A program made the position numbers and the translations under genes. DNA of 64,000 nt from Balanoglossus misakiensis (Eukaryota; Animalia; Hemichordata): assembly GCA_040954595.2 (NCBI GenBank), contig CM082581.2, forward strand, positions 4,208,699 to 4,272,698. The letters are read 5' to 3'. Shown piece after piece: positions 3,701 to 50,741 of this stretch (the first letter of the stretch is position 1; every line of letters begins with the position of its first letter). The notes under the pieces were generated by a model. That model did not search any database. It saw only the letters and a program-made list of their open reading frames with translations, and was not told the origin of the DNA.

Positions 3701-4137
3701 GAGGTCACCCCCTTTCCGTTTTCAATGAGAGGGTGGTCAGTCACCTTTTGATATCCACAAAATAGAATCCACTGCACCCCTAGGCCGGAGAAACCGACCA
3801 GTCCCTTAAGCGTGTCATTTTAGTAGAAAATGTCATTACCCTCAGTGGTGGAGGAACCTCCTTTACACATCTCTTTTTTCAGTTTCTCGGCGGTGGTGAC
3901 GTTGCCACGTCTTGTCAGAGCATCTACCAATTTCCTGATTGTCGCTTCACTGGCAGACCTCTTGTACCACTCGTACAACAGTTTGTATTTACATTCCCGA
4001 CGACCTACGCCAAGATAACTCTTCTCGATATCGTCAATATTGCCTTCGGAAACTCCCAGGGAACGCACTACGAATCGGATGTCGTCCAAGCTGACGTCAT
4101 CAATAACAAATTGAATGGCTTCTTCTATGGCTGCCAT
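773..4137 (-). CDS. Death domain - SAM - NHL-repeat protein (~513 aa, 4 coding exons: 3840-4137, 3240-3473, 1852-2016, 773-1617)
   Basis: GT/AG boundaries read directly; all three introns are phase 1; 1542 nt open to the stop at 773. Exon 1 is death-fold-like (VRSLGVSEGNIDDIE...YKLLYEW...ATIRKLVDAL). Exon 2 is SAM-like (VEEICEWLKEL...FRENRVTGRDM). The last exon has about six NHL repeats (FNRPHAV...VSDENNHRIQVFD, PCGIDVD...CDWGNDRI). Confidence 0.85.
2861..2876. promoter_or_regulatory. IRF-element-like motif in intron 2 of the DD-SAM-NHL gene
   Basis: TCACTTTCAGTTTCAT, i.e. tandem GAAA half-sites (GAAACTGAAAGTGA on the minus strand). Motif match only. Confidence 0.3.
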
Positions 4138-7135: not shown

Positions 7136-8980
7136 TTTTTTTTTTTTTTTTATTAATTTTTATAGGAAACAAATGACACAACAGAAACAACACAAAAACA
7201 CAAAACAACAAGCGAGGTCAATAAAGATTAACGCTTACAAAGATAGAAAAAGTAAGATTTGTTACAACTCACAATGCAAAAGTACTGCCCATTTTGTTTC
7301 ATACTGATTTACAGTTTTTCTATATTTTGCAAGTTTACCTTCAACACAGCGGACTTCTCTAATTTTATCCATAAATAAACGAAAGTTCAAAGGGTGGGAA
7401 TTAAATCTGGCTGTATAGATAAAGTATTTTCCCAATAATAAAAGGTAATTAAAAAGAATAGAATCTTTTGAATTGTACAAATCTGAGCCAAGAACTACTG
7501 TTTGGCAATTCAACTGGAGTGTATGCTTCGAATTGTTTGACCAAAATAACTCAAAATCTTTCCAAAAATTGTTAGCTTTTGTACATTCCCAGAATAAGTG
7601 CTCCATTGTTTCGGTATTATTGCAATGATCGCATAGATCATTAGGGCATAGTTTTCTAATATGTAGAAACTTATTAGTCGCAATTATCCTGTGCAAAATT
7701 TTGTACTGAAAATTACGCATTTTCTCTTCTATTGTTGTATTTTTAATCCTGCTCCAAATAGTTTTCCAATCAGGGGAAATATTATACAACCTTTCAATGT
7801 AGGCTTGACTTCTGGGAGGTACAAACTTGCTTCTAACTAATTTTTCATAAATCGTTTTGACTGACCCATCACCCAGCGGGCAGTCTTGGTCATTTACAGA
7901 TGTATGTCTGGTTCCATAATTTTTTTGAAGGTTTCTGGAATAGCGTGGATGAGGCTATGATATTTGAGAAACTGACTCTTGTCAATGGTATATTTTGTTG
8001 AAAACTTGTCCCAGGAAAGGTATTTACCTTTTTCACATAGATCTGATATATACATAATACCCTTGTCATACCAATCTTTAAAAAATACAGAATAATTATC
8101 AATTAAAATGTTCTTATTATTCCAGATGGTTTCGCTTTGGCTACTATCATCTATTACAGCTCTCAAATCGTGATAATATTTCAACATATCTCTATAGTAT
8201 TGAGGTATAGTAACAGGCAAGAAATTAATGTCAAAGTTACACTGTGATAAAAGATCTAATCCTCCAATTTTCCCAAAGTAGTACATTGGGATCTTCGTCC
8301 ATTGATGATTACAGTTTTTAAACGTGCAAGCAGTGACAATTTAAAAGCTTTGTCAAGTAGTTCACAATCGACCATTCCCAGACCGCCCTTATCAAGATTA
8401 CCAATCAAAGTATTGCGTTTTATCTTATGGGGCTTTCCATTCCAAATAAAGTCAAAAAGATATTTGTTTGCATACGTTAAAACAATCATCGGAACGGAAA
8501 CGGCGCTCATCATATAAGTTAACTTTGAGGCTCCGTGATATCTTGCCAACAGAACTTTCCCTCTCAAAGTGAGGTTTCGAGAATTCCAAACATTTAAATT
8601 ATTCTTCATTTTTCGAAGCTTCTGATTGAAGTTTAAATCCTCTATGTCGTTTTTATTGTAACCTAAGTAAACCCCTAGGAGTTTGATGGGAGCGTTTGTT
8701 GGCCTGATACCACAGTCATCAAAGGACTCTGACCTGTATTTTCCAAGAAGCATCATTTCTGTTTTATCACAATTCATACTCAAACCTGAACAATATTTAA
8801 ATTTTTCAACTAGATGAATGACATTTTTAAGTGATTGTCTGTTATGTAATAAAAAAGTGGTGTCATCTGCAAACTGTGAGATGCGTTCTTCACTCCCGTC
8901 AGGGAGAAGTAAACCAGAAATATTTATATCTTTACGTACTGCAGTAGCTAACAACTCAATTGCAATAACAAAAAGTGCGG
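7136..8980 (-). mobile_element. 5'-truncated L1/Tx1-clade non-LTR retrotransposon (RT C-terminal part and zf-RVT) with poly(A) tail
   Basis: LFVIAIELLA...SQFADDTT...FKYCSGLSMNCDKTE...LGVYL...GGLGM; C-terminal CDHCNNTETMEHLFWEC zinc knuckle; frameshift near 8270; AATAAA plus an A-run on the minus strand at ~7136-7155. Confidence 0.85.
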
Positions 8981-8984
8981 TTGA

Positions 8985-9630
8985 CAAGTTGACAGTTGCT
9001 GTTTTAAATGTAGGCACATACAAATTAGCATTGCTAACAGATCGAGTGATAAAATAATACATCTCAGAAACGTAAGAAAATTCATTTAAATAATCAGGCG
9101 CCAGGCCATGTAGTATTTTGAAAGTTTGAACTGCAATAAAGTAATCAATTCTGAAATCTATGGGCAACCAATGAAGAGTTGTCAAAAGAGAATGAGAAGA
9201 AAATTTTACATCGACTCTTAAAATTACTCTACCAGCTCTTTTCTGAAGTGTATGAATTCTTTGTAGATTGGTTTTCGACGTATTGCCCCAAACAGTGCAA
9301 CAGTAGTCAATTACAGAAAGAAACATTGCATTGTAAACCAACATAAGAGTATGCCTTGGGGTCAAAGGTCGCAGTTTCCTCAGTACCCCAATCCGCATTG
9401 ACAATTTCCTACTAAAGTTATCTATTTGAGCATCCCATGTTTAAAGCATTGTCAATCTCTATTCCAAGAAGTGTGTGAGAGGAAACACAAGAAATGCAAA
9501 TATTATTGATCCTAATATTGGGAGTGACAATTTTGGGCGAGAGGCAACAATCATCCATTTTGTCTTGGTGGTGTTAGTTGACATGGCACTCTTTGAAACC
9601 CAGGTGGAAATTGGTAAAACGTCCCCTTGA
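8985..9630 (-). mobile_element. L2/CR1-group LINE ORF2 3' fragment
   Basis: IGVLRKLR...LVYNAMFLSVIDYCCTVW...LQKRAGRVIL...LHWLPIDFRIDY...FKILHGLAPDYL is the typical post-RT region of CR1/L2 elements. A degraded NTTKTKWMI motif lies upstream. Confidence 0.75.
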
Positions 9631-9709: not shown

Positions 9710-10076
9710 GCAATTAGGCCTATATATGCTAATATTACTAGTAAAAGTCATACACTTTAACTCATTAATTATGTGCATACCTAATTCCAGGCTAACCAAT
9801 AGGGATAGAAGTCCCAATAGAAGTCCGGTTTTTGTTCGCCATGATCAGTTTCGTATCACAGTTTTTGGCAAAATGTTGGTGACCTTCAGATTACCATTGA
9901 CCTACTTTCGCGTATCTCAGCACATCAGAGCATTTGCAGTATTGGCATTTGGTTGAATGTGTCACCTAATAAGTCTCATGCTTAACCTATTGAATATGAA
10001 TATACTACTAGTATATCATATCGCCATGTGCCAGTCCAGCTATGGGGCCCGCCATTGCTGCTTGCGGCTATATTTT
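9710..10076 (+). mobile_element. 3' fragment of the non-autonomous DNA element family also at 15.7-19.4 kb (Helentron/HINE-like)
   Basis: Contains cattaattatgtgcatacctaattccaggctaaccaataggg and ends ggggcccgccattgctgcttgcggctatatttt, matching the ends at ~17115-17145 and ~18305-18340. Confidence 0.65.
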
Positions 10077-10369
10077 CGAGAGTATATTGTTTTCACACTC
10101 CTCTACCAATGAGACCAATGCTGGTAGTTCCATTTCTCGAAACAATTCCTTTAGAAGTTTTAAATCGTCATTTTTGATGCGTCCCTTCTCTTTCAAACTG
10201 TAAAATATTTCTGACGGAGATTCCAAATCCTGCAATTCTCGTTTTGGTATGAAGTCTTCTCGTAACAGGCCTCTGAGATGACGTTCATCAGTTCTGTTTA
10301 AACGCTTCTCAAGTTTCATGAAAAGGACCTTCAGCGGATTTAATTGTGTTACTTCGAAATGCTTTGAAT
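10068..10369 (-). CDS. Death effector domain exon (terminal exon of the chimeric gene)
   Basis: LKVLFMKLEKRLNRTDERHLRGLLREDFIPKRELQDLESPSEIFYSLKEKGRIKNDDLKLLKELFREMELPALVSLVEE follows the six-helix DED pattern. Acceptor atcattacag at 10370. Confidence 0.8.
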
Positions 10370-12741
10370 CTGTAATGATAATATTACTTTATTAATGTCA
10401 TATCATACAAAAGTAAACATAACATGCAAATTACACATTTCTCAAATCTGATCTAATAGACCATCTTGATATTCTGACTATATAGCATGTATGATCTTTT
10501 CCCACAGAGATTAAACTAAATATTATGAGATTAAGTTTTAAAATTCCATGATGTGAAATTACAGTAAAAATTATTATACATACAAGTTTCATCACTATTT
10601 CTCAGTGACCAAGTCATCCCACAGATCTGTATATATAATTACCGGAACGTTTTGCCATAGCATAGCATTATTTTTGACACTTACCTCCATTTGAAGAACT
10701 GCTACCGACTGGACTCGCTTGGTTCCTCTATACACGAGAAAAAGAGACCAGTTATATATATTTAATCAACAGCAACATGTACGGGAAAATAATTTAATAT
10801 GTTTCAATTTTCAAAACATATTAGTGCTTGAAAACTTTGAGGTACTCATTACAGTGATTCCCTTTGCAGCCAAACTGGCCAATTACCCAGCCAAGTTGTT
10901 TACTATTGAGACTTTCAGTGTTTGCCTAACACATTCAATTCCAGGTGAAATGCAAGACAATGGATCCGACACTCCATCCATGGGCAGTCAAATGTACATA
11001 TGGGCACTCATAAAGGTTAGTCATTATGGCTATAACCTAAATTGTTACATGAGGTATGGTGTGGGGGGATTAAGTATGGGCACCATACGATTATAATGCA
11101 TTCATATCATCTGGGTAACTGGCCACTTTGCTGTACTAAGCCAATGAAGGGAAAATGCACATAAGTATCTTCTTTTCAACATGATATATTGAAGCTAAAA
11201 CCTGTTTGTGTTGTGTTACAACAATGACATTTCTATGTTTCACATACTAATAATACATTCAGGTAGGTTCTTACATTTGGCATTGCGAATAAGACCTCAA
11301 CACTTGGTGATTCATCATTTTTCTGAAACAGCATACATCCATGCAGACCCATTCCACTTTGCTTGGATTTAACGAGAACATCCCAGTGGTTATCACTAAA
11401 TGGGTAGTATGTTCTCCTGTTCAGCTTAGTCTCCAGATGAAAAGCCCCCCTTTCGGGTACAGTATTTTGGACAACATCTCCATGTTTCAGCTCAATATCC
11501 GAACTGTGTGTTGTTCTTTCATCAGTGTATTGTTTATACTTATCTTCAGTTCGCAATAGATCTGATATGGATCTTTGTCCCTTGGTCTCTATCAAGTCGC
11601 ATCTTAAGAATGTCGGAAATTGCTTGTGCTGAAGAAGAAGAATATTTACAATCTGATTTCCAGACTTCTTGGAGTCTGTGACGGTAGATAGGATGTAGCA
11701 AATTCGTGGCATGACTTCTTTGATGTATCTTCCCAACGAATATCTGAAAACAATTCCAGACACTTTCAAGGAATGGAAATGGTGAAATGTAATCAAATGT
11801 TCTACCGATGCATGACGACACATTTAGAATCACAACAGAGATTACAGAAGCGATGTGTTATATTTCTTTCAGATACAAAAACATCAAATTAAAGAAAGAA
11901 TGCAATATCAACATAATCTTAGCAATTGCATTGCATTTCCAAGGTATATATTTAAGGAAAGAAACTCCAACCTACATGTACCCACTCAGTATCTGAGTAT
12001 GAAATTCCACCACATCTTGTTGTACAGTAAAAGGACAATCCTTTGTAACATCTTTCCAATCACAATTACCAGCCTCATCTTTCAGTACGCACAGTTCTGT
12101 ATCATCAGAGGAAACGCCAGGAATGTCTGGTGGCAGTGGGATGGTTAGTTTTACAGGCTTGTTGAACTTTATGCTTTCCCTCTGGCCTCGATTGATGTAT
12201 ACTATGGATGCAAAGGACACGTCGAGAGATTCTCCACCAATTGGGAAGACACTATCAACTGTGTTATAGCCACAGTCATGGACCTTCAATACAAAGTGTA
12301 AAATATTAGGCGAAATCCCATCAAGCTGCAACTGTTACAATCATAGGTATTCGGCGAGTAGCATATATACACTAGTTGCAGGTAAACCTTTGCACATAAA
12401 TGGCATTTTCATGCATGGGTCAGAAATGTTGCCATTACCCATCTCAGCCTGAGAACTGGGACTGGTCCCAGATTGCAAAAAAAGCGATCTGTAACCGGTC
12501 CCTGACACATCTGACTGCACTTTTGGCAAACTGGGAGTCCAAGTTTGCGGTACCAAATTGCGTTTTGAGGACTCGTATACCTGAAACTGCATGCTAACTA
12601 ATAATGCGTGTGTCAGTGCAAAATGACAAAGCCCATTGAATGTTGTCACTGCCCATATCTAGCTGATTTAACCCCTGTTCAGCTACAGTTGAAGTAATGC
12701 TCTAAGTGGGGTTATAAAAGGCATCATGGTCAAGGTGGTGG

Positions 12742-12835
<94 letters not shown>

Positions 12836-15800
12836 AATGATGATATTATTCACCTCTAATATCAAAGCCGTTTCGTCTTCGATGGCATCTTCTGGGACTA
12901 CAATGCTGATCCTTTCGTCTTTTTTTGAGGTAAATGTTCCACCTTCTTTCCTGATATCAAATGTGTCTTTATATGGTCTCGAAATTGCGATGAAAAATGA
13001 AAAATGGCAGACTTCTACCTTGATATTATTGTCTACCTGAAAATGAATAAGCATTTAACAATTAATATCATTTTTACTTTTCGTATATGGTCAGAATCTT
13101 TATGAACAAATGAGTAGGCCTCTGGATTGATGATAGTACTGTTCTGCTAGTAAAACAACCGGTTTTCTTGTGACTGTCGGACTATTTTTTGTTTTGCCAA
13201 CTGGAAGGTCAGCAGGCTGCAATGACTGACAATTTAATTACATGTCCATAGATACATACATACCCATACACATATGTGCGTACTGAAATGCAATAATATC
13301 AAGTTAAGAATGGCATTGATATGTAGTAAAATTTCACTGTGCAGATTTGTGACGTGCTTACTTCAATAGTTTTTAACTCTTCCCATGTTTCACCATTTTT
13401 GCTTGTTAGGATGACAAGTTCTCTCTCAAATGGCTGAACAGTTAGACACTTCCTCACAAGGTAGACTGGTTTTTTCAGTGTTATGCTATCTGACTTGAAA
13501 TCAAGGACATCTGACTGATACCATTCAAAGTCTGCAAGAGGGACCTTGGTGATGTTCTTGTTACATGTGACCAATAATGTTGTGTCTTCTTCCACACATT
13601 CTGGTGGGACCTCGAGTGAAAATCCACATGGTAATTTGTAGGAAAATCTTTCCTTTAGGAGGGAAAACAAATCATTACAACTCCAGAAATGGGCTGGAAA
13701 TCTCCACTATTGAAGGTTGCAGTGTTAACTACACAGTGAACACCTATTGCCTGGCCATGAGGGCCATAGCGGCCGTTTATTACACCCGAGGGGCTGTGAG
13801 TTACCAGAATCATATGCTATTTCCCTCGGCCTGCGGCCTCGGGAAATAGCATATGATTCTGGTAACTCACAGCCCCTCGGGTGTAATAAACGGCTGCTAT
13901 GGCCCGAATATAGGCCAGGCTATAGGTGTTTTATAATAAACCTCATGCTAACAGCTGGGAAAATCTTGCAATTTTCTCTTGAGGCTGGCAGACGACATCT
14001 TCAGCGGTGGCCATTGTGTCAGACGACGCGACGCTGATTGACGTGACCGAGTCTGCGCACTCACGCTGGTCACGTGACCGGTTTATTTTTTCTGCTATTT
14101 CCCTAGCGGTTCATAGTCGATTCTATTTTCCTATCACGTGACGGATACTGGCGAATCACGGCACAGTATTAGCATGATGTACATTATAATGTAAATTATG
14201 TCATGAAAGCATTTGCCTGCAAAGTAAAGTTCAAGAGGCCAGATATGATGTATAATTTCAAGGCCTTAAAATATGAACAGTTTTGATACAAAAAGTATTG
14301 CCTACATATTATAACCTGCCATGGTGCATGCTGATGCATTCCAAGTAAGAAAGCCTGTATCAAGTTACACAATTTCTAGATGTTCATCGACAATTGTTTT
14401 ACTGAATATATTTCAATCCTTACAAATATGTATTGCACAACCTATTGAGAAACAAAAATGTGACGATCAAATTAATAAAAATACTCTAATTTTTCTTCAA
14501 TCATCACGCCTACCTCATTAGCAGCGATGAGCACAAGAGTTCTTTGGCCTTTGATATCCTCTGAAATGCAGATTTGTTAGGATAGTTAAATTGGTATACA
14601 TGTACCGGTATGTTTATAACATATTAGTAAATCTTGAAATTGAACATGGTTTTTCATTTGATAATTGCACTGACCTTTTATATTTCTGTTTGTCCTACTA
14701 GCCTGAATATGTTTTATACCTGATCTACTCACTTAACACCCATCTGTAGAGCTTTGCAGGAAACAATTTACTTAGTCCTTAATTTGCTGTTTCCCTGCAG
14801 TATTGCGCATATTAGTTGGTTCAACAGAGTTGATAACAGACCCTCCAACACCATGCATGCACAGCTGTAAACCTAGCTGCCATGTATGCAGTCTTTTGGC
14901 TCCTGAACACACTTACGGGTAAGTACACGACACATCAAACAGTCACATGATCAATGCCATGTTCAGAGTTGAAAATTACAATTCAGCTTGATAAACAATG
15001 TGTCGCTCAAAGTGTGGTTGTCAGGCAAAACTATGAAAAATGTGCTCAAAACTCACCTTGTTGGTGAGGTCCTTGGGTTATTGTGCTCTCTTCCAATTCA
15101 AGGAGCTTATTGATTGCTTTCTGTTTAAGTATATTCCGTTCTTTAAGTTGGTCATTCTCTTTCCGCAAACCGTTTATCTCAATATCATCTTGTTTCCCTT
15201 GGATGACTTTGTCAGTTAATTTCTTTTCTAGTACATCACAATCTTTTCTGACTTCTCTGAGGCTTTTTTCTTCCTCTTTTCCTCTCAGTATTCCTTCAAG
15301 CACTTTCATATCAAATTTCATTTTGTTTAGCTCCTGCCCAGACATTTCAGTTTTAATGGCTTTATCTTCACCAGAAACTTTCTTTGCTAGTACTTCATAA
15401 TCTTTTCTGACTTCTTTGAGTATTTTCTCGGTATATTCCTTTTCTTCCTGGTTTTCTCTCAGCCTTCCTTGTAGCACTACCATCTCAGTTTTCATTTCTT
15501 CCAGATCGATACTAGTAATATCCCTGACAGACAGTTCAGTTTGAACGTGTTTCTCTTCTCTTGACTGTTTTTCAGGGCTGTCAACTATAATGGTAGAAGA
15601 GATGAAAGGTATAAATAGTAGAGACTGGATATTCAAGCTCATCACCGTACCCTGAGGAATCACATACACGTGTTTGATTGCCTAGCCTGTGTTCACAGAG
15701 AGGATATAAGCCAAGCTCTTTCAACACAACATTGGCATATGCCAATTGTTAGGGGCACAAGCCTATCGGGCTTGTGCCCCTATTGGTATTGTTTGGATTT

Positions 15801-18800
15801 TTAGGGCCCAAGCGCACGCAAGCGCTTGGGCTTGGCTTGGGCCCGTATTGGTTTCATTGGGGTTTTTAGGGGTCCAAGCGCCTGGAGCGCTTGGACCACT
15901 ATTGGTTTCGTTGGGGTTTTTCTGTCTTTAGAGCCCAAGCGCACACCAGCGCTTGGGCCCTATTGGTTTCGTTGGGGTTTTTAGGGGCCCAAGCCAAGCC
16001 AGGCTTGGGCCCGTATTGGTTTTGTTGGGGTTTTTCTTTCTTTCTTACGGGCCCAAGCCAAGCCAGGCTTGGGCCCGTATTGGTTTCGTTGGGGTTTTTC
16101 TGTCGTTCCTTCTTTCTTTCTTCTTTCTTTATTCGTTATGTCAATTATTTGTCGCTCTAGATCTCAGACACCACTGCAGGTACAGTTCTCAAACTTGCTA
16201 CAGTGGTCAAGGTCAATGAGTGGTCGTGCATTGAACCCATGAAATTTTTAATTAGTCACGTGACCTGGCGGCCATATTTGATTTTCTGAAAAAATGCAAA
16301 TCTCAGATCTCAGAAACTACAAGTCAGATCGACTTCAAATTTGGAGTGCTGGTAGACTACCTTCTGCCCATCATTTTTGTAATTGGAAATTATGCTGTCA
16401 AAGTTGCAGTTTTTTTGCTACAATTTTTTTTCTACAATATGTTACAAATTTTTGGCGATTTTTCACATGACCTTTGACCTACTTTTCACACATTATTATT
16501 TCTGCATATCTAATTCCAGGCTAACCTATAGGGCTAGACGTTTGGTTTTTGATGCATGTGGATTAGTGTGTGATCAAAATATTTTGCTACTTTTCATGAC
16601 CCCTTTGACCTCTGTTGACCTCATTAATTATGTGCATAGCTAATTACAGCCGAACCAATAGAGCTAGAGGTTTTGTTTTTGTTATTCATGGACCAGTATG
16701 GGGTCAAAATATTTTGTCCAAATGTTGGGTGACCTCGGGTGACCTTTGACCTATTTTTGCATATCTCGACATCCACAGCAGATACAGCCTTGGCGTTTGG
16801 AGGTATGGGGCCATACTGAAAAGCCAAAGTTTTGGGTCACCTGTGACACCTGCTTGACTCATTATTTATGTGCATACCTAATTCCGGGTTAACCAAAAGG
16901 GCTAGAGGTCTGGTTTTTGTTGGACATGGACCACTATGGGTCAAAATTTTCTGCCCAAATTGTGGGTGACCCCTGGGTGACCTTTGACCTACTTAACACT
17001 ATATCAGCACCAAACATAGATATAACCTTGATATTTCATGGGATAAAAGACAGCATTATGTTTCTACTAATTAATTATGTGCATATCTAATAATCAGATC
17101 AGATAATAGAGCTTGGGCCCGGACAATGCTGCTTGCAGCTTTAATTATTATTATTATTCCGAGAAATTTCGGCATGGTAGATCAGGAAAACCGGTCTGAA
17201 ACTTGGTAGGGTGATAGCGGCCAATTAGGAGACGTGCAGTGGATCGTGAATATTTAATTAGTCACGTGACCTGGCGGCCATATTGGATTTCCTGAAATTC
17301 GTTAAACGAGTCCTTCTCCAAAACTACTGGCCTGATCGAGTTCAAATTTGGTGTGCAGGTAGCCTACCTTCTGTCCATCATTTTACCCTATTGAAATCAT
17401 GACGTCACACATAAAGTTTTTTTGCTACAATTGTTTTTTCTGAAAAACTACTTAAAATTTTTAAAATCTTCTTCTCCAGAACCAGCGATTGCCAAGTCAC
17501 GCGATTTGGGATATGTGGTCACCTAACCTATGTCTATCAAGTTTGCGAAGCGCACTGTGATTGGTCGATCATTATGGCGGCCATGTTGGATTTTCGGAAA
17601 ACCATTGAAAAGTGAAAATTCCGTTTTGTAGCCAAAATTTTAACAGCATGGAAATTCTTTTTTTGGATATGAGTCATCATTTGACCGGAAGTTGTCACAA
17701 TGTTTCGGTGCAATTTTCACTTGACCTTTGACCCAGTTTTAAAACAACTAATTATATATGCATATTCCCCATACCTCCTCTTGTAAAATCACCACAGTCA
17801 TGAATTTTGTGGACATGGGTACCAATGCTGCCAAGACATGACACATATATTTTGGTATATTTGGCAATGACCTTTGACCTATTTCTGAGACATCATTTTT
17901 CTGCATATCTAATTCCAGGCTAACCAATAGGGCTAGAGGTCTGGTTTTAGTTGGACATGGCCCACTCTGGGGTCAAAAGTTTATGCCCAAATTTTGGGTG
18001 ACCATGGATGACCTTTGATCTACTTTCCCATATCTCAGCATCCACAGCAGTTAGAGTCCTGGCTTTTGGGGGGCCGATGGAGCACATATGGAGTCTTACA
18101 CAAGACCACATTAATTATGCGCATACCTAATTCTAGGCGAACCAATAGAGTTAGGGGTCTGGTTTTTGTTGGACCTAGACTAGTATGGGGTCCGATTCTT
18201 TTGCCCAAATTTGGGGTGACCTCAGGTGACCTTTGACCTACTTTCCCATATCTTGGTATCCACAGCAGATACAGCCTTGGCATTTGTTGGTTACCATGGG
18301 AACCGCTTGTGCCCCGCCAACGATGCTTGCAGCTTTAATTAATATTGTTATCATCTAAGAGAGATTACTATTTGTGAGATTATTCACCAACCAAACACAT
18401 TAAATTGTATTTACTGGAGAGAGTGGATAGTCAAACTCAGTACATTGTCAACGGAGTGAGTTGACCACTGCATGTACCTGTTGAGTATTATACCATGAGG
18501 AATCACATATACCGGTACACGTGTTTGATTGCCTAGCCTGGCTACACAGAGCAAGAATCAGCTAAGTTATGCTTGTGATTTTTATACCGGCCATTTGACG
18601 TGTTCTTTCAACAGATCACTAGCCCTATGTGCATGTTTGTAATGCTGTTATCATGAATTTCAAAGTAAACTCAAAAACACAGCCTATAACCCTGCAATCA
18701 GCAATTAAAAATAAATTACCAAAGGGTTTACACACCAGGGGTTTCTCGAAACCCTGTTGAAATCGTGCTGTTTTAGGGGCACAAACCAGATAAGGGCGGG

Positions 18801-21800
18801 GCCCTTATTGGTATTGCTGGAGTTTTTAGTTGGGGTTTTAAAGGCCCAAGCCTATTTACCTAATTCTAGGCTAACCAATAGGGTCAGAAGTCTTTTTGTA
18901 CAGGCACCAGTATGGGTGACCTTGAGATGATTGTCCTACTTTCTCATATCTCTGTATCCAGAATAGCTATATGACCTGGCAGTTAAGTTGGAGGTATGAA
19001 ATGCTTATTAATTATGCACATATGTAATTCAAGGCTGACCAATAGGGCTAGAAGTCTGGTTTTGGTTCGACATGGATTAGTTTGGGATCAAAAATTGTTG
19101 ACAAAATTTTGGTTGAACTTGAGATAACCATTTACCTACTTCTAATATTATAGCATCTAGAGCATACTTATGCGGCTTTGGCATTTGGGAGGCTGTAATG
19201 GAGTCTTATGATTTACCTCATTAATTATGTGCATGTCTAGTTCTAGGCCAATCAATATGACTAGGCGTTTGTTTTCTATTGAATAGTAATCGCTATAGAG
19301 CCGCAATTTTCTGTCAAATTTTTGGGTGACCTTTGACCTACTTTCACATATCTCCGGAATCAGGATCTACAACACGTACAGGCGTACTGTTTCTTACCTT
19401 CCGGCACCTCAAAAACATATTTACTTTTCTGTGACATTTTCACCTCATTAATTATTTGCATATATAATTGTCGGCCATCCGATAGGCGTCCAGGTGTCTT
19501 ACTGATTGGGCATTGACTACAAAAGGACGTCGACCAAAATTCCAGTATTGCAGCTTCCCTTAAATGCTCACAATCGACAAAGGAATGTACAAGGGAGAGC
19601 AGATAAGGGAACGATTTAAGGAAAACCTTGCTAACATTTGTTTTGATATGTTTACCTGTGTCTGTGAGTCTAATCTGTTTCTTCTTCCTCTCTATGTTCT
19701 GCACCATGTCTTGGAGTCTTCGCTTAGCTGCACCTATTGCTTCTGGGTTTCCTTCCAGATAAATGCCTGTTGTTTTGAGCGTCAATTTGCCTTTCGTTTG
19801 GTAGAGTTGTTGTCTGATGTCGTCAATGTCTCCTTCACTCTTGTGACGTTTTATGAACCTCATGATGTTTTCATCGACATTCAAACATGTCGACGTTTTC
19901 AAATTGGCTTGTATGAACTCATGCAGATTCTTGACGGCAGGTTCAACATTCTGTATTACTCCAACTACATCCAAAGCATCGCGCTTGACTGTGATATGAA
20001 CGAGGTCGTCCTTCTGTAAGTTGTGGACCAGTCTTTTGAACTCGCCCTTTTCAAACATTCCACTCGTGTCATCTTTGGTTCGTATCTTGTCCACCTTGAA
20101 GCAGCGCTCGATGATTCCGATAACTGCTTTGATAGTATCTATAGATGTAGACGTAATGATGACGTCAGACTCTCTCACTTCAATTCTGGCTTTTAGGTTT
20201 TGATTTTTGATCTGTTGGCATAGATACCGTTTCCCTGGTTTCCTTTGCAGGAAAGCAATGAGGTGTCGCTTCGGTGATCTGTAATATTTTTCGTGAAATG
20301 TCTTGAAGGCTTCGTAAACCTCGCACATTGCTGGACTAAGGTCACCCTGGCAGCCAGTGAAGATTACACATTTAGATTTCCAATCGATTGCAATATCCAC
20401 CGCGTGTCGATCTCTGATAGCATCCAGTTGTTTCGAATTCTGCAGAAGGTACAGACGCCCAGTGCTTTGATTGGAAATCTTAGACGTTTTTCTACGTGAT
20501 TTGCGTTTCAGTTTCTCCAAATAAGCGTTCTCTGATTGTCGAATCTTTTCTATTGCCTTATCCACGTCTAATGTCTTTCCAGTTAGATGAATTTCATGCT
20601 TTTGTTCATCCGTTCGCACTCTGAGCATGCTGGATGGAGTTTTTTCGAGATCTGATAGTACTGATTGCAACACTTTTGGATTGACAGTCACGTTCTTTTG
20701 GCTGTACTGACCGAAGAACTCGGCGAGCGCCGCTTGGCTGTTTTCTTCCCACTCTTGTTTTTTCTTTCTTCCGTTGATAGTTTTACTGGACGAGACGCGT
20801 ATGGTCTCTCCTCCAAGATCACGAAAAACGATTGCGTCTACAGCACCCATGACTCTACGGAATTCATCCCCGTGTTCTCTGTTAGATTCGATAAACTGGA
20901 ACGCATCACGATTGACTGGCAGTGAGTATTCGGAGGTGTTTGACAGGCTTCGCGTCATTTTAGTGGGTTGTGCGAACTCCTGTTCCTGCTCCTTTTGCTT
21001 CGGCGTCATTTGAAAGGGTATTGGGTACACTTTCTCCTCTTGGTACTGCGTTGACGTAACTTGTTCTGAGAATTCTGTCTTCTTATTGTGTGGCGCTTTC
21101 TGAACGTCGGATTCATCATCTTCTTTCGGGTCACCACAGTCCTCTTCGGAATCCACTTCCACGCGGTCGTAAAAAGCTGCCACAGAGAGGTCCTCGCCTT
21201 TGAAGGTGTGTGAGCGAGCCAGCACACGTGTTACGCCTGTGTTTAGAAAGTCATCGGTACTGTGAGATCAGATGAGGCTGGGGCGTGTGGGAATTCACAA
21301 TCCGAAATTTGCAATGAAAATTAAATATCTCGAAATATTGCAAAAAATGTGATTAAATGGGTCTAAATGCTTAAAGGGAAAATGGGAAGAGAAATTTAAA
21401 ATAGAGTTGCAATTTCAAGACCTTACAGTGACCATACGGATTCCATAAAACACCATTCTGTCAAACTTGAGCTGTGTACAAGTCACTTTAGACTACGTAC
21501 AAGGGAACTACATTTACAATAAGGAGGATAATTCAGTTTTATGCTACTTACATGAAGAATCTGTAAATGTTATTTTTGCAGAAGAATTATCTGCATTAAC
21601 AATAACTTTGTAGACATCGCCACCACCACTTCGCTCTTTGTTCTCAAAGTAGAGTTCCAACCGATCTTCGGTGACGTCATCGGGTAAGTCGGTGATGACG
21701 ATCGTTCTTGTCTCATTCACTGGAAACAGCTGTAATCTCGAACGATCCAGAAACTTTTTCTTCTCTGGTCGTCTATCGGACGTGTCGATCATCCTCTTTA

Positions 21801-24800
21801 AATCTAGTAGAATGGACAACGCAAGATCATTTATGTTACTTTCGCATTAACTGGTGTTGTACTCTCTTGAAAAAGTGTTCTCATCATGAAACCGACAAGA
21901 TTCGTGTGATATGGTTCTGATTAATTTATACCACCATTAATTATGTGCATATCTAGTTCTAGGCCAATCAATATGACTAGGCGTTTGTTTTCTATTGAAT
22001 AGTAATCGCTATAGAGCCGCAATTTTCTGTCAAATTTTTGGGTGACCTTTGACCTACTTTCACATATCTCCGGAATCAGGATCTACAACACGTACAGGCG
22101 TACTGTTTCTTGCCTTCCGGCACCTCAAAAACATATTTACTTTTCTGTGACATTTTCACCTCATTAATTATTTGCATATCTAATTGTCGGCCATCCGATA
22201 GGCGTCCAGGTGTCTTACTGATTGGGCATTGACTACAAAAGGACGTCGACCAAAATTCCAGTATTGCAGCTTCCCTTAAATGCTCACAATCGACAAAGGA
22301 ATGTACAAGCGAGATCAGATAATGGAACGATTTAAGGAAAACCTTGCTAACATTTGTTTTGATATGTTTACCTGTGTCTGTGATTCTAATCCGTTTCTTC
22401 GTCTCTATGTTCTGCACCATGTCTTGGAGTCTTCGCTTAGCTGCACCTATTGCTTCTGGGTTTCCTTCCAGATAAATGCCTGTTGTTTTGAGCGTCAATA
22501 TGCCTTTCGTTTGGTAGAGTTGTTGTCTGATGTCGTCAATGTCTCCATCACTCTTGTGACTTTTTATGAACCTCATGATGTTTTCATCGACATTCAAACA
22601 TGTCGACGTTTTCAAATTGGCTTGTATGAACTCATGCAGATTCTTGACGGCAGGTTCAACATTCTGTATTACCCCAACTACATCCAAAGCATCGCGCTTG
22701 ACTGTGATATGAACGAGGTCGTCCTTCTGTAAGTTGTGGACCAGGCTTTTGAACTCGTCCTTTTCAAACATTCCACTCGTGTCATCTTTGGTTCGTATCT
22801 CGTCCACCTTGAAGCAGCGCTCGATGATTCCGATAACTGCTTTGATAGTATCTTTAGATGTAGACGTAATGATGACGTCAGACTCGCTCACTTCAATTCC
22901 GGCTTCTAGGTTTTGATTTTTGATCTGTTGGCATAGATATCGTTCCCCTGGTTTCCCTTGTAGGAAAGCAATGAGGTGTCGCTTCAGAGAATTGTGATAT
23001 TTTTCGTGAAATGAATTGAAGGCTTCGTAAACCTCGCACATTGCTGGACTAAGGTCACCCTGGCAGCCAGTGAAGATTACACATTTAGATTTCCAATCGA
23101 TTGCAATATCCACCGCGTGTCGATCTCTGATAGCATCTAGTTGTTTCGAATTCTGCAGAAGGTACAGACGCCCAGTGCTTTGATTGGAAATCTTAGACGT
23201 TTTTCTACGTGATTTGCGTTTCAGTTTCTCCAAATAAGCGTTCTCTGATTGTCGAATCTTTTCTATTGCCTTATCCACGTCTAATGTCTTTCCAGTTAGA
23301 TGAATTTCATGCTTTTGTTCATCCGTTCGCACTCTGAGCATGCTGGATGGAGTTTTTTCGAGATCTGATAGTACTGATTGCAACACTTTTGGATTGACAG
23401 TCACGTTCTTTTGGCTGTACTGACCGAAGAACTCGGCGAGCGCCGCTTGGCTGTTTTCTTCCCACTCTTGTTTTTTCTTTCTTCCGTTGATAGTTTTACT
23501 GGACGAGACGCGTATGGTCTCTCCTCCAAGATCACGAAAAACGATTGCGTCTACAGCACCCATGACTCTACGGAATTCATCCCCGTGTTCTCTGTTAGAT
23601 TCGATAAACTGGAACGCATCACGATTGACTGGCAGTGAGTATTCGGAGGTGTTTGACAGGCTTCGCGTCATTTTAGTGGGTTGTGCGAACTCCTGTTCCT
23701 GCTCCTTTTGCTTCTGCTCCTTCTGCTTTATTTGAAAGGGGGGTTGTGGGTACACTTTCTCCTTTTGGTACTGCGCTGCCGCAACTTGTTTTGTGAATTC
23801 TATCTTTTTTTTGTGTCGCACTCTCTGAATAATTGGTAAGAATTCCTCCTCATCCTCCTCATCCTCGTCGGCTTCATCATCTTCTTCCGGGTCACCACAA
23901 TCATCCCCTTTCATGTGGTCGTAAAAAGCTGCCACAGAGAGGTCCTCGCCTTTGAAGGTGTGTGAGCGAGCCAGCACACGTGTTACGCCTGTGTTTAGAA
24001 AGTCATCGGTACTGTGAGATCAGATGAGGCTGGGGCGTATGGGAAATCACAAACCGGAATTTGCAATGAAAATTAAATATCTCGAAATAATGCAAAAAAA
24101 TGTGATTAAATGGGTCTAAATGCTTAAAGGGAAAATGGGAAGAGAAATTTAAAATAGAGTTGCAATTTCAAGACCTTACAGTGACCATACGGATTCCATA
24201 AAACACCAATCTGTCAAACTTGAGCTGTGTACAAGTCATTTAGACTACGTACAAGGGAACTACATTTACAATAAGGAGGATAATTCAGTTTAGGCTGCTT
24301 ACATGAAGAATCTGTAAATGTTACTTTAGCAGATGAATTATCTGCATTAACAATAACTTTGTAGACATCGCCACCACCACTTCGCTTTTTGTTCTCAAAG
24401 TAGAGTTCCAACCAATCTTCGGTGACGTCATCGGGTAAGTCGGTGATGACGATCCTGCTTGTCTCATTCACTGGAAACAGCTGTAATCTCGAACGATCCA
24501 GAAACATTTTCTTCTCTGGTCGTCTATCGAACTTGTTAATCACCCCCTTTACATCTAGTGGAATGGACAACGCAAGATCCTTTATGTTACTTTCGCATTT
24601 ACTGGTGTTGAATTCTCTTGAAAAAAGTGTTCTCATCATGAAACAGACAAGATTCGTGTGATATGGTTCTGATTAATTTATACCACCTGTCCAGTTCCGT
24701 TTAAATCTTCAAACAACAAAATTAACAAGTAAAACATAATGTTACACGAAGTCTACTGGAATTTAAGTTCTATCAATGATTACCTATGTCATCTTCAAAC

Positions 24801-26061
24801 GTCACAACAGCTTGATTCTGGTCTCCATCTTTGTCAACCTGAATGACATCACTTCCGGCTAAGTCTTTCAAGAAGGGTCCAAGGCAGTCTGCAGTTGTTT
24901 TTGCAGATACATTCTGTCGATCAAGATGTTCAAATTATTTACCAAAATGGACATGGATATTAAAGTTTCCCGCCAATTACTTTGATTTGCATATTCTGCA
25001 GACAATATGTAAATATTCCTTGAGTATAATTACTAGTATCTCGGTATAGTGGCGAGTCATACAATACATTATACAGTTGCAATACACAATTTTGATAACT
25101 GAATAGTAACGCTTTCGCATTTTGGATTTAACTATTCCATTTCTGGCTCTAGCTCCGCAAAGTGCCTCTTGAACGGACTTGCTTTTGTTGCATATAGGGC
25201 GGTGGGTGTAGCATATAAAATTGTTCATATACCACCGCCTTTAAAGATTTATTCCATTTTGTGTAGGATAATCATTATGACTCAGCTTATACGAGTACCT
25301 CATGCAAAAGGAATGAAGACCGTCCACAACATTATATTAGTATATTTCTTTCTCAGCAGACTTACTTTTATAAGTAACTTCGTACAGTCAATAGGTTTCT
25401 CCGTATATAACTTTACTTTCAGTTTTTTGCCTTGCAGGATATTTGACCGACGAACCACTCTTTCGGCAACTACAAAAATCAAGACAAGAAGTTGTAATGT
25501 ATGCATGGGGTAACCCATATGCCCTTGGGGAATGGGCTGGATGATTACAAAACGTCTGTCTCTGATATATAATACAGAAAGGTTTACTTTCAGGAAGGCC
25601 AAAATGGCTGTGGGGCATTCCATTGGCTTTGTGATCTGTGGAGTTTCTCAGTGCCTGTGGCGGCATTTGTGTAATCAATCCTATAAGTTGTAGTTCTCAA
25701 TCATTGGTTCTCATTTAGTGAAGTTGACACTGGTGTGTTACACTGTATTTCCAAAATTTATTGCAAATAAATCAAGTACAATGTACCAGTAAATGCCATT
25801 GCCCTGCTGTATATTGTATCGATACAAGAAATATTTCAGAAAAGAAATCAGAGCTCGACTGTGATTGCACTTCAGTATATAATAGTACTTCATGTGATAT
25901 TCATGGCACACATTTTTTAACTCAGATCTTGAGACATATTTACTGACACTTACTTGGTTGTCCTTTTTATTGAACTATTCATGAACTATAGCCAGTAAAA
26001 TACACGGTATATTATAAGATACTCGAGTATTTTAGGGGGAAAGCAATTCAATTGGAGTGGT

Positions 26062-26152
<91 letters not shown>

Positions 26153-26205
26153 TTATTTATTTATTATTTATTATTTATTTATTTTTTATTTATTTATTTA
26201 TTTAC

Positions 26206-26268
<63 letters not shown>

Positions 26269-26855
26269 TAAAGCCTTCACAAAGAAGAGAAATAAATAAA
26301 ATGCACACACACAAAAACTGAATTCAAAAGTTAACACAAAATGCAGATAATTAAAATGGTCTTAACAACATATTCAAAAGACACCGACTGCGTGCATCCT
26401 TTGCCAAAAAAACTGGCAAACACTGTGAGTCAGTCAGTCAGTCCATCCAATCCAGAACATGTCTTCATATTTTTACGCATCGCACATACATAATGATTAT
26501 CAAATTAACGGATTGACGGAGAGGTACATGTAGAATATCCCTATGAAAACCCTAACATATTGAATTTCGGAATAAATACCAAGCATGTATTGTATTTAAG
26601 TTAAAGTGACCCTTGGCCCAGTAGTCCCCATTTTGAAAAAAAATAACTCTCTTTGACACAGCTGCCTGTCATTGACACGTACTTACCTGTTGAGTTTTCA
26701 AATGCGATGAGATATATAGTTCCCTTCCGGGTGATTGTGAGGATTTTGCCTCCTCCGGACCGTTTTGTGTCTTTAAAGTACTGCTCCAACGTTGCTTCGT
26801 CCTCACTATAGTTTGAAACTTGTATTATGGCCCCGTCTCTTGCAGCGGTAGCCAT
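10068..26855 (-). CDS. Chimeric PARP14-like RRM/KH (x2) - coiled coil - ZU5-ZU5-UPA - DED protein (~2089 aa, 15 exons)
   Basis: Exons 26687-26855, 25366-25469, 24784-24913, 24303-24554, 22372-23988, 21552-21803, 19656-21236, 15057-15584, 14514-14560, 13362-13652, 12854-13036, 11982-12283, 11275-11743, 10685-10727, 10068-10369. All are GT/AG with matching phases and sum to 6270 nt with no internal stop. The 19656 to 15584 join crosses a 4-kb TE-filled intron and is the least certain link. Confidence 0.7.
11275..13652 (-). CDS. ZU5-ZU5-UPA (PIDD/ankyrin-like) exons of the chimeric gene
   Basis: ZU5a: GFSLEVPPECV...SDVLDF...LKKPV...NGETWEEL...VEVCHFSFF. ZU5b: EGGTFTS...ISIVVPEDAI...FNKPVKLTIPLP...WKDVT...FHTQILSGY. 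A following beta-rich ~155-aa exon is consistent with UPA. Confidence 0.75.
12743..12843. repeat. (ATG)n microsatellite
   Basis: Direct reading; intronic. Confidence 0.95.
13739..14190. mobile_element. Non-autonomous element with a ~190-bp internal palindrome (13739-13930)
   Basis: Arms aacacctat...gagttaccagaatcatatgctatttccc and gggaaatagcatatgattctggtaactc...ataggtgtt surround a GC-rich centre tcggcctgcggcctc. Confidence 0.65.
15057..15584 (-). CDS. Coiled-coil exon (phase 1-1) of the chimeric gene
   Basis: E/K-rich heptads with an internal repeat (MKTEMVVLQGRLRENQEEKE...KEVRKDYEVLAKK / MKFDMKVLEGILRGKEEEK...REVRKDCDVLEKK). Confidence 0.75.
15745..19355 (+). mobile_element. Cluster of tandem or nested non-autonomous DNA elements (Helentron/HINE-like) in an intron
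   Basis: Hairpin 5' ends (gggcccaagc...gcttgggccc), internal degenerate repeats (aattatgtgcat...ctaattccaggctaaccaatagggctagagg, tgacctttgacct), and 3' ends gcttgcagctttaatt at ~17145 and ~18340. Confidence 0.65.
19219..24687. repeat. Intragenic tandem duplication of ~2.7 kb (19219-21935 and 21935-24687) carrying an RRM exon and a large KH-like exon
   Basis: ORFs 19360-21225 and 22076-23977 are nearly identical, as are their introns. The junction is gattaatttataccacc|attaattatgtgcat at ~21935. Confidence 0.95.
19656..26855 (-). CDS. PARP14/PARP10-type N-terminal region: RRM-like repeats and KH-like arrays
   Basis: Three L(EQ/EL)YFxxxxRSGGG RRM signatures (LEQYFKDTKRSGGG, LELYFENKKRSGGG, LELYFENKERSGGG), VLARSHTFKGEDLSV, and KH-like units (IHLTGKTLDVDKAIEKI, VIFTGCQGDLSPAMCEV, IYLEGNPEAIGAAKRRL). 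Confidence 0.75.
26061..26268. repeat. (TTTA)n microsatellite
   Basis: Direct reading. Confidence 0.95.
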
Positions 26856-31741: not shown

Positions 31742-33056
31742 TTATAATTGTCGGGGACAAAACATCCCCAACTCGTGCGAGAACTATGATCCCCGTATGA
31801 TCACAGGTTCTTGGGAGTACGAGATGTTATCACAGTTCCTATTGTTAGATTTGCATCAATCTGAATAATATATATATATATAAATAGGCGTTGTCTTTGC
31901 CTTTACTTGATCTCCGCTGTTCGCGTTTTCTTAAAGAGAGAGACGACAGAAACAGAACACGAACAGCAAAGACCATACAGGTAAAGACGCCGACTATCTC
32001 AACAGCTGATTTTCATCGGATTGAGTACCCAGTAAATCAAAGCGGCGCAGACAAAGTAGGGACGCGGCAACATTAAAAGTTCAGTAAAGACTTTTGCATT
32101 AAACCGTGGCGATCTATATCTTGGTAAGAAAGGAGTTCAGTTCCAGAATTCTAGGAGTGCGGTCGTTTCGCTGATCCAGCCGTGACTGCAGGCTTGACCT
32201 GTATGTCCACGGCTGGCCATTCTAAATAAAGTCATCGGCGTTTAAATTTACACTCCGTACGTGTTCCCGTCTCTTCATCAACCATCATCACCCTCACCCG
32301 ACATCACCCGAGAACGTGTTCTACCCCACAATTGGGAGACATGACATGTCTCCAAATTGTGGGGTAATACACGTTCTCGAGTGAAGGTGATGATGGTTGA
32401 TGAAGAGACGGGAACACGTACGGAGTGTAAATTTAAACGCCGATGACTTTATTTAGAATGGCCAGCCGTGGACATACAGGTCAAGCCTGCAGTCACGGCT
32501 GGATCAGCGAAACGACCGCACTCCTAGAATTCTGGAACTGAACTCCTTTCTTACCAAGATACAGAATCATTTTTAAACACATCAAACTGCCCGCGTGGGG
32601 TCTTTACAAAACACTATTGTTCTTCGCCTAAGCTGTGAACGCCGGTAGTCAAAATGTAAATTAGTTACAGCTAGCCACCAGTACGTAAAATTCTTTATGT
32701 GAGTGTGAATTGGTGATTTCGGATGGAATTTCTGGCGTCCCCGCAGCCCCTAACAACGTCATATTGGTGTCATGACATCGTCCTCACCCCACTGGACCGG
32801 GTCTATTTTTAAAGCCAGACTTTGCGGGTCTCGAATCTGGGTCGCCTTTTGAATCGTATCGTGCAACAGTACAATGCTCGGCGAAAAGAGATTTCAGAAG
32901 CGGGTCAAGAGACTTGTTCAGACAAATTCCTGCGTTTTCGCTTGAAAGCTGGTACAGATTCAGGCAGAGGGGTTACAGACATCTACAAAAATGCCCCAGT
33001 GTACACCCCAGCAACTATCAACTAGCGCTGCAACAACGATTGTGCTTTTTTACCCA
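31742..33056 (+). repeat. Segmental duplicate, copy B (homologous to 6062-6966), interrupted by a palindrome
   Basis: Same shared strings as copy A. Minus-strand donor GTAAGT at ~31698-31703. Confidence 0.9.
32117..32561. mobile_element. ~445-bp near-perfect palindrome (foldback MITE, possible TA TSD)
   Basis: tatcttggtaagaaaggagttcagttcc... is mirrored by ...ggaactgaactcctttcttaccaagata; centre at ~32344. Confidence 0.85.
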
Positions 33057-50194: not shown

Positions 50195-50464
50195 TTAAAA
50201 AATACGCTTCTTTACAATGTACAACACGGTTGCGAAAAAAAATGCTAAGGCAAGAATAATCAGTAGTTTGTCTGTTATTTCTCTCCTATTGTATTTTGTT
50301 AAAAGATTCCGACTCATGTGTATAACCCCTCGCATGCCTTTGAATTCTTCGTGTGTTTCTTGGATTGTTTTGGAAGATGTCACTGCAAGAAAAGAGAAAG
50401 ACATTGAGAATGGTAGCATAATAAGTAAAGTCTTTATTTCTAGCTCATCATTATCACCGCCACT

Positions 50465-50519
<55 letters not shown>

Positions 50520-50567
50520 ACAACACGATGATGATGATGATGACAACAATGATGATGATGGTGGTGG

Positions 50568-50606
<39 letters not shown>

Positions 50607-50741
50607 CAACGACAATGATGATGATGGTGATGATGATGATGATGATCATGATCTATGTAATAAAATAGTCAGTTTTATTTAGAAATTCATGACAGTATTT
50701 CAAAGAAAAGAAAACTACACAGTTATTTCCTACTCCTGTGA

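Follow-up and report, generated by a model that had tools for sequence, protein, structure and literature searches.

PIDD1, whose domain order is LRR-ZU5-ZU5-UPA-DD (DD, Death domain), cuts itself at a His-Phe-Ser motif behind each ZU5 to give PIDD-C and PIDD-CC (PMC9162469). NLRP1 and CARD8 likewise have a self-cleaving ZU5, with a variable front before it and a death fold behind it; they have a single ZU5, cut directly before UPA (together the FIIND), and a CARD as output. Ankyrin-B is a structural adaptor with ankyrin repeats ahead of its ZU5-ZU5-UPA region and a DD behind it (PDB 4d8o). PARP14, an antiviral enzyme, runs from RRM1-3 through six in-line KH domains to a KH that is split by three macrodomains (PMC10450202); KH8, WWE and ART follow. 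Its RRM/KH front is described as largely uncharacterised (PMC13224862). PARP14-type RRM/KH regions and a DED occur in one chain in fusions from sponge and oyster (Amphimedon XP_019855315.1; Crassostrea EKC32942.1 and XP_022299287.1). About ten Crassostrea virginica proteins combine DED-TRADD-N, KH, RRM, macro and ART, and the Figure 4 source data of the same paper list a sponge protein with the order Death-DED-TRADD-N-UPAx3-RRMx3-KHx7-Macro-KH-KH-PARP and coral HEPN-TRADD-N-ZU5-ZU5-UPA-Death proteins (PMC8195603). The gene described here lies in a 64,000-nucleotide stretch of the hemichordate Balanoglossus misakiensis (assembly GCA_040954595.2, contig CM082581.2, positions 4,208,699 to 4,272,698, forward strand; "the window") and is predicted to join a PARP14-type RRM/KH front to a ZU5-ZU5-UPA-DED module.

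The predicted protein reads RRM1-RRM2-[RRM3-linker-KH array]x2-coiled coil-ZU5-ZU5-UPA-DED, the second copy opening with a presumed RRM2 tail. It resembles PIDD1 in having two ZU5 domains, a UPA, a C-terminal death fold and His-Phe-Ser after ZU5-1, and differs in having no LRR, a DED instead of a DD and no second His-Phe-Ser, so that no PIDD-CC equivalent is predicted. As in NLRP1 and CARD8, a self-cleaving ZU5 would separate the front from the death fold; unlike them, the gene has two ZU5 domains, keeps the upstream site and ends in a DED. The front is like that of PARP14 in that RRM3 fits the PARP14 model and three putative RRMs are followed by about six predicted KH domains, ending at the split-KH position; unlike PARP14, it lacks macro, WWE and ART, has the RRM3-KH block doubled, and carries a coiled coil and a death module behind it. 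The sponge and oyster fusions, on the other hand, carry their DED at the N-terminus, include TRADD-N, retain macro and PARP domains and have no listed ZU5; the present protein has lost the enzyme, and its death module would form the C-terminal output. In the Figure 4 data of PMC8195603, which cover TRADD-N proteins only, no RRM together with ZU5 is found among the matches listed (60 of the 62 RRM and 30 of the 96 ZU5 places), and the papers found on ZU5 with PARP14 do not, by titles and abstract starts, deal with a protein of this kind. The predicted order is an undescribed one built from two modules already shuffled in marine invertebrate immunity. An earlier sequence-only reading had held that the architecture is not known from described proteins, which stands for the exact order but is too broad for the combination, since sponge and oyster proteins that join PARP14 domains to DED or UPA are on record (PMC8195603). 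The reading favored here, at about an even chance, is of one young chimeric gene in which a PARP14-type front and a coiled coil precede a once-self-cutting ZU5-ZU5-UPA-DED module, likely as an immune sensor.

The gene model comprises 15 exons on the minus strand from 26855 to 10068, with 14 introns that are all GT-AG and a joined frame of 2089 aa whose only stop codon is the terminal one. Upstream of the ATG at 26855 lies a stop codon in the same frame, 12 of the 15 exons have a single frame of three that is stop-free or closes in the terminal stop, and every intron from 3 to 8 is in phase 1. Recomputation returns the single stop-free frame of about 2089 aa with consistent phases that the sequence-only reading had proposed, including its junctions at 19656/15584 and 11275/10727/10369. 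Exons 10-15 are independently backed by a collinear alignment (aa 1619-2080; 466 columns, 42% identity, E 1e-103) to a gene model of the acorn worm Ptychodera flava (XP_070536463.1, hereafter P0002). The domain order given in that reading is likewise supported by Pfam, profile and fold searches.

For the front, Pfam places RRM3 above its cut-off and RRM1 below, and RRM2, which is split across exons, has no match. The exon 4 RRM3 matches the RRMs of NMI (E 4e-4) and PARP10 (E 1e-3) in the PDB, and the RRM of exon 1 resembles it (E 9e-7). Within exon 5, PF23254 (KH_PARP14_8) is found at E 2e-5, under the Pfam cut-off, and sub-windows of exons 5 and 7 give weak KH_PARP14_2, _5 and _8 matches in 4 of 12 pieces (including PF23248 and PF23252). 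An Atlas search with the KH region returns KH proteins as the nearest clusters, with a best score of 0.92 at what the tool rates as low recognition. A single-sequence model of the region (pLDDT, the predicted local distance difference test score, of 47) contains about six strand-helix-helix-strand-strand-helix units, the type I KH pattern, and VIA-align ranks type I KH first for it, mainly through the last unit (Z 9.2, root-mean-square deviation 2.3, 75 aligned); Foldseek with the same model finds nothing at E <=0.001, and exon 7 against PDB sequences gives chance matches only. When the six candidate units are compared pairwise, one of the 15 pairs stands out (z 3.7), and the KH count is thus not fixed by sequence alone. 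Taken together, the data indicate that a predicted type I KH array follows the RRMs, its count of about six resting on a low-confidence model. Macro, WWE and ART domains have no Pfam match in the 13 scanned exons (exons 9 and 14 are shorter than 20 aa) or in 89 other open reading frames, in agreement with the earlier description of a catalytically stripped PARP14 N-terminus. Given the published PARP14 layout (PMC10450202), the front stops about where the enzymatic half would start. As to function, KH1-2 of PARP14 binds RNA and tracking over 40 bases has been proposed for its KH domains (PMC10450202), KH domains of the PARP14 family are also used for protein binding (PMC11080071), and RRM1-3 of PARP10 assemble into rings and drive oligomers (PMC13710856).

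Exons 4 and 5 were recently duplicated in tandem, giving rise to exons 6 and 7, and exons 5 and 7 are 86-87% identical. The duplication junction is clean, with one shared base, and there is no N in the window, which argues for genuine duplication rather than for the stitching of haplotypes. All four exon indels between the copies are multiples of three and all four intron indels are single-nucleotide, and none of the 60 non-synonymous differences is a stop; if both copies were unconstrained, these patterns would have p values of 0.011 for the indels and 0.024 for the stops, whereas with just one copy unconstrained neither reaches significance (p 0.059 and 0.154). To judge from the patterns, both KH copies look translated. 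Differences between them cluster at two places, the acidic linker and the KH3-KH4 neighborhood, and the KH region of copy 2 is more basic, with an isoelectric point of 9.5 against 8.7 in copy 1. Between 22540-23640 and 19830-20920, about 600 nt are near-identical and flanked by blocks at 75-90% identity, a patchy divergence that suggests gene conversion between the copies.

The C-terminal module belongs to a hemichordate family. A HMMER search with exon 12 against 1.84 billion representatives returns 12 hits, of which seven are from Ptychodera flava, one is from Glandiceps talaboti, one is an ankyrin-ZU5-DD protein and three are bacterial-type; identity to exon 12 is at most 51%. The three bacterial-type hits (P0009, P0011 and P0012) are repeat adhesin-like and were left out of alignments and tree. 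A metagenome scan also yielded a locus with a long open frame (L001), which we take to resemble a bacterial transposase and which was set aside as a chance match. Among the nine true relatives, the module is preceded by LRR (P0003, P0004, P0007), LRR-FN3 (P0006), CARD (P0008, XP_070531668.1) or ankyrin repeats (P0010), or by no detected front domain (P0001, XP_070548985.1; P0002; P0005), and is followed by a DD, CARD or DED; none has RRM/KH. P0001, P0002 and P0008 are uncharacterised P. flava gene models with a ZU5-ZU5-UPA region collinear with this gene. In a 10-row ZU5-ZU5-UPA tree, the gene groups with P0001 and P0002 (100/99) and next with P0008 (93/94). Since a DED closes both P0002 and P0008, the tree indicates that ZU5-ZU5-UPA-DED already exists as a hemichordate module and that the novelty lies in the front. 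P0001 and P0002 begin at or within ZU5-1 and may be incomplete gene models. Ankyrin-2 is matched by the family profile at E 6.5e-20, from ZU5 across UPA into the death fold, and the P0002 model, as a stand-in for the spliced C-terminal half, finds the ankyrin-B ZU5-ZU5-UPA-DD fold (PDB 4d8o, about 16% identity) at E 4e-19, followed by UNC5b, NLRP1 (E 2e-5) and CARD8 (E 8e-4). Exon 13 has no usable match in the Atlas. The ZU5-ZU5-UPA assignment of exons 9-13 is thus supported through profile and fold searches with relatives. The sequence-only reading, in which an LRR sensor was replaced by a PARP14 N-terminus and the DD by a DED, is correct in that there is no LRR and the DED comes last, and holds as an analogy rather than as demonstrated descent, given a family with DED members and many fronts and with ankyrins as the nearest solved structures.

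The motif that ends ZU5-1 is His-Phe-Ser (aa 1668-1670), and that of ZU5-2 is Ile-Leu-Ser (aa 1816-1818), a degenerate second site. P0002 has His-Phe-Cys at the first site, and in the clade of P0001, P0002 and this gene the first site is the better kept and the second is worn; family members with LRR or CARD have kept x-Phe-Ser at the second site and lost the first. Since the cleavage motif is anchored structurally by its Phe, for which UNC5b has Leu (PMC3210808), the worn Ile-Leu-Ser points to one cut, into 192 and 48 kDa pieces. We infer a single self-cut with a freed piece, ZU5-UPA-DED, that would be PIDD-C-like. The NLRP1/CARD8-type release of a UPA-death-fold fragment that had been suggested earlier is not predicted, as His-Phe-Ser is found in ZU5-1 only and ZU5-2 has Ile-Leu-Ser. 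PIDD-C is tied to the NF-kB branch and not to the caspase-2 branch.

For the favored chimera, the following course of events can be proposed. A PARP14-like gene, cut after about six KH domains, would have been joined to a ZU5-ZU5-UPA-DED gene by phase 1 exon shuffling. The precursor would cut itself at Phe1669/Ser1670, with the two pieces remaining bound. The front would be the trigger, collecting with PARP14-like proteins or RNA via the RRM/KH array and acting as a bait; cutting or degradation of the front driven by a pathogen would then release ZU5-UPA-DED to engage a DED partner. A bait combined with clustering is favored, given that the cut site has been retained and most GxxG loops are missing. 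The retained ZU5-2 and the worn DED motifs make it likelier that the output modulates a DED complex, or is signaling of the NF-kB type, than that it kills directly via caspase-8. The significance of such a chimera is lowered because both halves are freely shuffled in marine invertebrates, where one more combination is to be expected, and because the join and the functional steps are predictions.

A number of observations, at the join, in the functional motifs and in the duplicated copies, weigh against a single functional chimera and are taken up here with the rivals they bear on. Exons 1-7 and 8-15 probably share one transcript, as the splice signals and composition of the locus suggest. The exon 7 donor is identical to that of exon 5, and at this point the AT skew passes from +0.44 to -0.18 and the coding score falls from 0.53 to -0.14, from exon-like to intron-like. 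The acceptor of exon 8 is among the strongest of the gene, and no convincing first exon of its own is found upstream, the best ATG-started candidate measuring 25 nt; candidates for hidden exons in intron 7 that pass the filters number zero. Pfam scanning of 89 open reading frames (of 96 listed) in intron 7 and its flanks gives no matches, including 0 of 22 within intron 7, and thus leaves no PARP14 remainder at hand for the exon 7 donor. In copy 2, the alternative donor at 19399 is stronger; being likewise in phase 1, it would lengthen exon 7 by 86 codons and leave the fusion in frame. It is GT in copy 2 and GC in copy 1.

The first rival, which is unlikely overall, is that two units adjoin here: a truncated or decaying RRM/KH PARP14-like gene, and a separate coiled-coil-ZU5-ZU5-UPA-DED gene whose non-coding first exon may lie in intron 7. 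An open read-through of 98 codons continues past the donors of both exon 7 and exon 5 (19360-19655 and 22076-22371), a length reached at 0.14% of background positions, and the front may end there; yet this read-through scores as intron and enters a repeat family, no AATAAA occurs from 19655 to 16133, and the frame of copy 2 has been kept in a way that requires the splicing of exon 5. The read-through was also considered as an old continuation into the split KH and rejected, as it has no Pfam family and an intron-like composition. CpG observed/expected differs between the halves (0.96 in exons 1-5, 0.51 in exons 8-15; p 4e-4), a contrast that two units, a young fusion and a 5′ to 3′ gradient would explain equally well; in the neighboring gene it falls likewise, with values of 1.08 and 0.59. 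Two units would also accord with the 4-kb gap full of repeats and with the lack of a front domain in P0001, P0002 and P0005, the nearest P. flava models, although the P0002 model starts within ZU5-1 and is hence probably incomplete. Further points against the join are that a phase match at a single junction has a chance of at least one in three, that RRM/KH is found in 0 of the 12 HMMER hits, and that word-index searches for longer relatives with exon 13 (covering proteins up to 2000 aa), exon 7 and the family alignment, rated weak by the tool, scored none.

If the halves do form one protein, its front may be the target of an attack. NLRP1B acts as an integrated decoy with release after degradation (PMC13037943), and by analogy pathogen enzymes aimed at PARP14-like proteins might destroy a doubled, diversifying bait and so free the signaling ZU5-UPA-DED; this more specific form of the proposal is tentative and, taken by itself, doubtful. 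In a rival account, the same fused gene would work as an RNA-nucleated platform, with the KH array binding long single-stranded RNA, the RRMs and coiled coil oligomerising, and the clustered DEDs recruiting a DED caspase or FADD, the C-terminal fragment not being released. The RNA binding and proposed 40-base tracking of PARP14 KH domains (PMC10450202), the more basic KH copy 2 and the rings of PARP10 RRM1-3 (PMC13710856), together with the avidity that doubling of the array would add, are in keeping with such a platform. It is nevertheless distinctly unlikely: canonical GxxG loops are mostly missing, a single one occupying a KH loop position and being gone in copy 2, PARP14-family KH domains also bind protein (PMC11080071), the kept cut site is left unexplained, and the DED lacks the motifs FL and RxDL.

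The state of the DED bears on the favored chimera as well as on this platform. Gly2023-Leu2024 aligns to Phe122-Leu123 of caspase-8 DED2, the Phe of the FL motif, the hydrophobic motif of the type Ib surface, being replaced by Gly. The RxDL motif of helix 6 is not present in the exon 15 DED, where Glu-Leu-Pro-Ala aligns at the motif place of caspase-8 DED1. The DED of P0002 has kept FL, and its loss here may be decay. In humans, caspase-8 FL mutants lose self-filaments and keep FADD binding, and FADD F25R gives no caspase-8 activation (PMC11074299). The missing FL and RxDL, in the light of these mutants, make this DED ill suited as a nucleator of the FADD kind; it may cap a DED assembly or modulate one. 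The wiring to caspase-8-type death envisaged by the sequence-only reading is accordingly doubtful.

The gene could also be a genuine young chimera that is neutral or without function, thrown up by exon shuffling within an immune cluster and still open because it is recent. The ratio of non-synonymous to synonymous substitution rates (dN/dS) between the copies is about 1.5 and does not depart significantly from 1 (p 0.30), and positive selection between the copies was considered and is unsupported on this ground. The worn DED motifs, and an architecture found in none of the 12 HMMER hits nor in the searches for long relatives, would also suit a neutral by-product. This is still improbable in view of 2089 codons without stop or frameshift, splice sites that are all intact, indels that are in-frame only, and an exon 8 that has had time for internal 58-nt repeats at about 80% identity. 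Lastly, an assembly error in which two haplotypes or loci were stitched together, as the 600 near-identical nt and copies whose 94-97% identity falls within the allelic divergence of marine invertebrates might suggest, is very improbable given the sharpness of the junction, where one base is shared, and the lack of any N, and a wrong duplication alone would leave the architecture as it is.

If the chimera is real, the PARP14 front alone would carry the sensing or bait function, with a direct read-out for its ligand or attacker, and a non-chordate deuterostome would provide a case of NLRP1-type guarding that ends in a DED output. Should the decoy form hold, invertebrate deuterostomes would guard the antiviral ADP-ribosylation arm with an NLRP1-like tripwire that signals by way of a DED.

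Table 1. Features of the predicted RRM/KH-ZU5-ZU5-UPA-DED gene in window coordinates, from the 5′ to the 3′ end of the minus strand
Feature	Coordinates	Strand	Description
Exon 1	26687..26855	-	aa 1-56; N-terminal part of first RRM; PF23222 RRM_PARP14_1 E 0.002, below cut-off
Exon 2	25366..25469	-	aa 57-91; RRM1 end and presumed RRM2 start (by position); Pfam: no family
Exon 3	24784..24913	-	aa 92-134; presumed RRM2; Pfam: no family
Tandem duplication, ~2.75 kb	19219..24687		24687-21935 and 21935-19219; 94-97% identical; intronic breakpoints
Exon 4	24303..24554	-	aa 135-218; presumed RRM2 end and RRM3; PF23085 RRM_PARP14_3 51 bits, cut-off 24
Exon 5	22372..23988	-	aa 219-757; RRM3 end, acidic linker, ~six predicted type I KH domains (copy 1)
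Exon 6	21552..21803	-	aa 758-841; exon 4 duplicate: RRM2 remnant and RRM3; PF23085 51.1 bits
Exon 7	19656..21236	-	aa 842-1368; exon 5 duplicate: KH array copy 2; donor is predicted fusion point
Intron 7	15585..19655	-	4071 nt, full of repeats; alternative in-phase donor at 19399
Exon 8	15057..15584	-	aa 1369-1544; likely coiled coil (heptad score only); phase 1 at both ends
Exon 9	14514..14560	-	aa 1545-1560; ZU5-1 lead-in strand; end aligns with P0008 and P0004
Exon 10	13362..13652	-	aa 1561-1657; ZU5-1; PF00791 E 0.009, below cut-off; 48% to P0001
Exon 11	12854..13036	-	aa 1658-1718; ZU5-1 end and ZU5-2 start; 48-50% to P0001 and P0002; no Pfam family
His1668-Phe1669-Ser1670	12998..13006	-	predicted self-cleavage site, cut before Ser1670
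Exon 12	11982..12283	-	aa 1719-1818; ZU5-2 with Ile-Leu-Ser end; ankyrin ZU5 matches E 4e-5; 51% to P0001
Exon 13	11275..11743	-	aa 1819-1975; UPA; 39% to P0002; no Pfam family
Exon 14	10685..10727	-	aa 1976-1989; Ser-rich linker; frame depends on exon 14; no independent homology
Exon 15	10068..10369	-	aa 1990-2089 and stop; DED; PF01335 42.6 bits, cut-off 35.9

Within intron 7, a 36-nt stretch recurs at 18516-18551 and 15665-15700 (92% identical) and brackets 2.8 kb of repeats, without which the intron would measure about 1.2 kb. Intron 9 contains a long palindrome at 13739-13930 (71-nt arms at 96%, with 18-nt outer arms) that resembles a miniature inverted-repeat transposable element, and further palindromes occur in the window at 32113-32565 and 50445-50646.

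The neighboring gene downstream, on the minus strand at 773-4137, has three exons (4137-3840, 3473-3240 and 1617-773) with phase 1 GT-AG introns. Its 458-aa product is predicted to be a Death domain-SAM-NHL propeller protein, a second shuffled death-fold gene at a distance of 6 kb. Between the two death-fold genes lie broken pieces of a retroelement of the long interspersed nuclear element type (RVT_1, zf-RVT; 7262-9440, minus strand). The other side of the window holds a single open frame of 2474 codons with SKI/DACH, a weak c-SKI SMAD-binding domain, an AT-hook and tandem repeats (38068-45492, minus strand), followed by exons of a Sec20/BNIP1 gene (50195-50668, minus strand) and exons of a GDA1/CD39 nucleoside phosphatase gene (54185-58915, plus strand).

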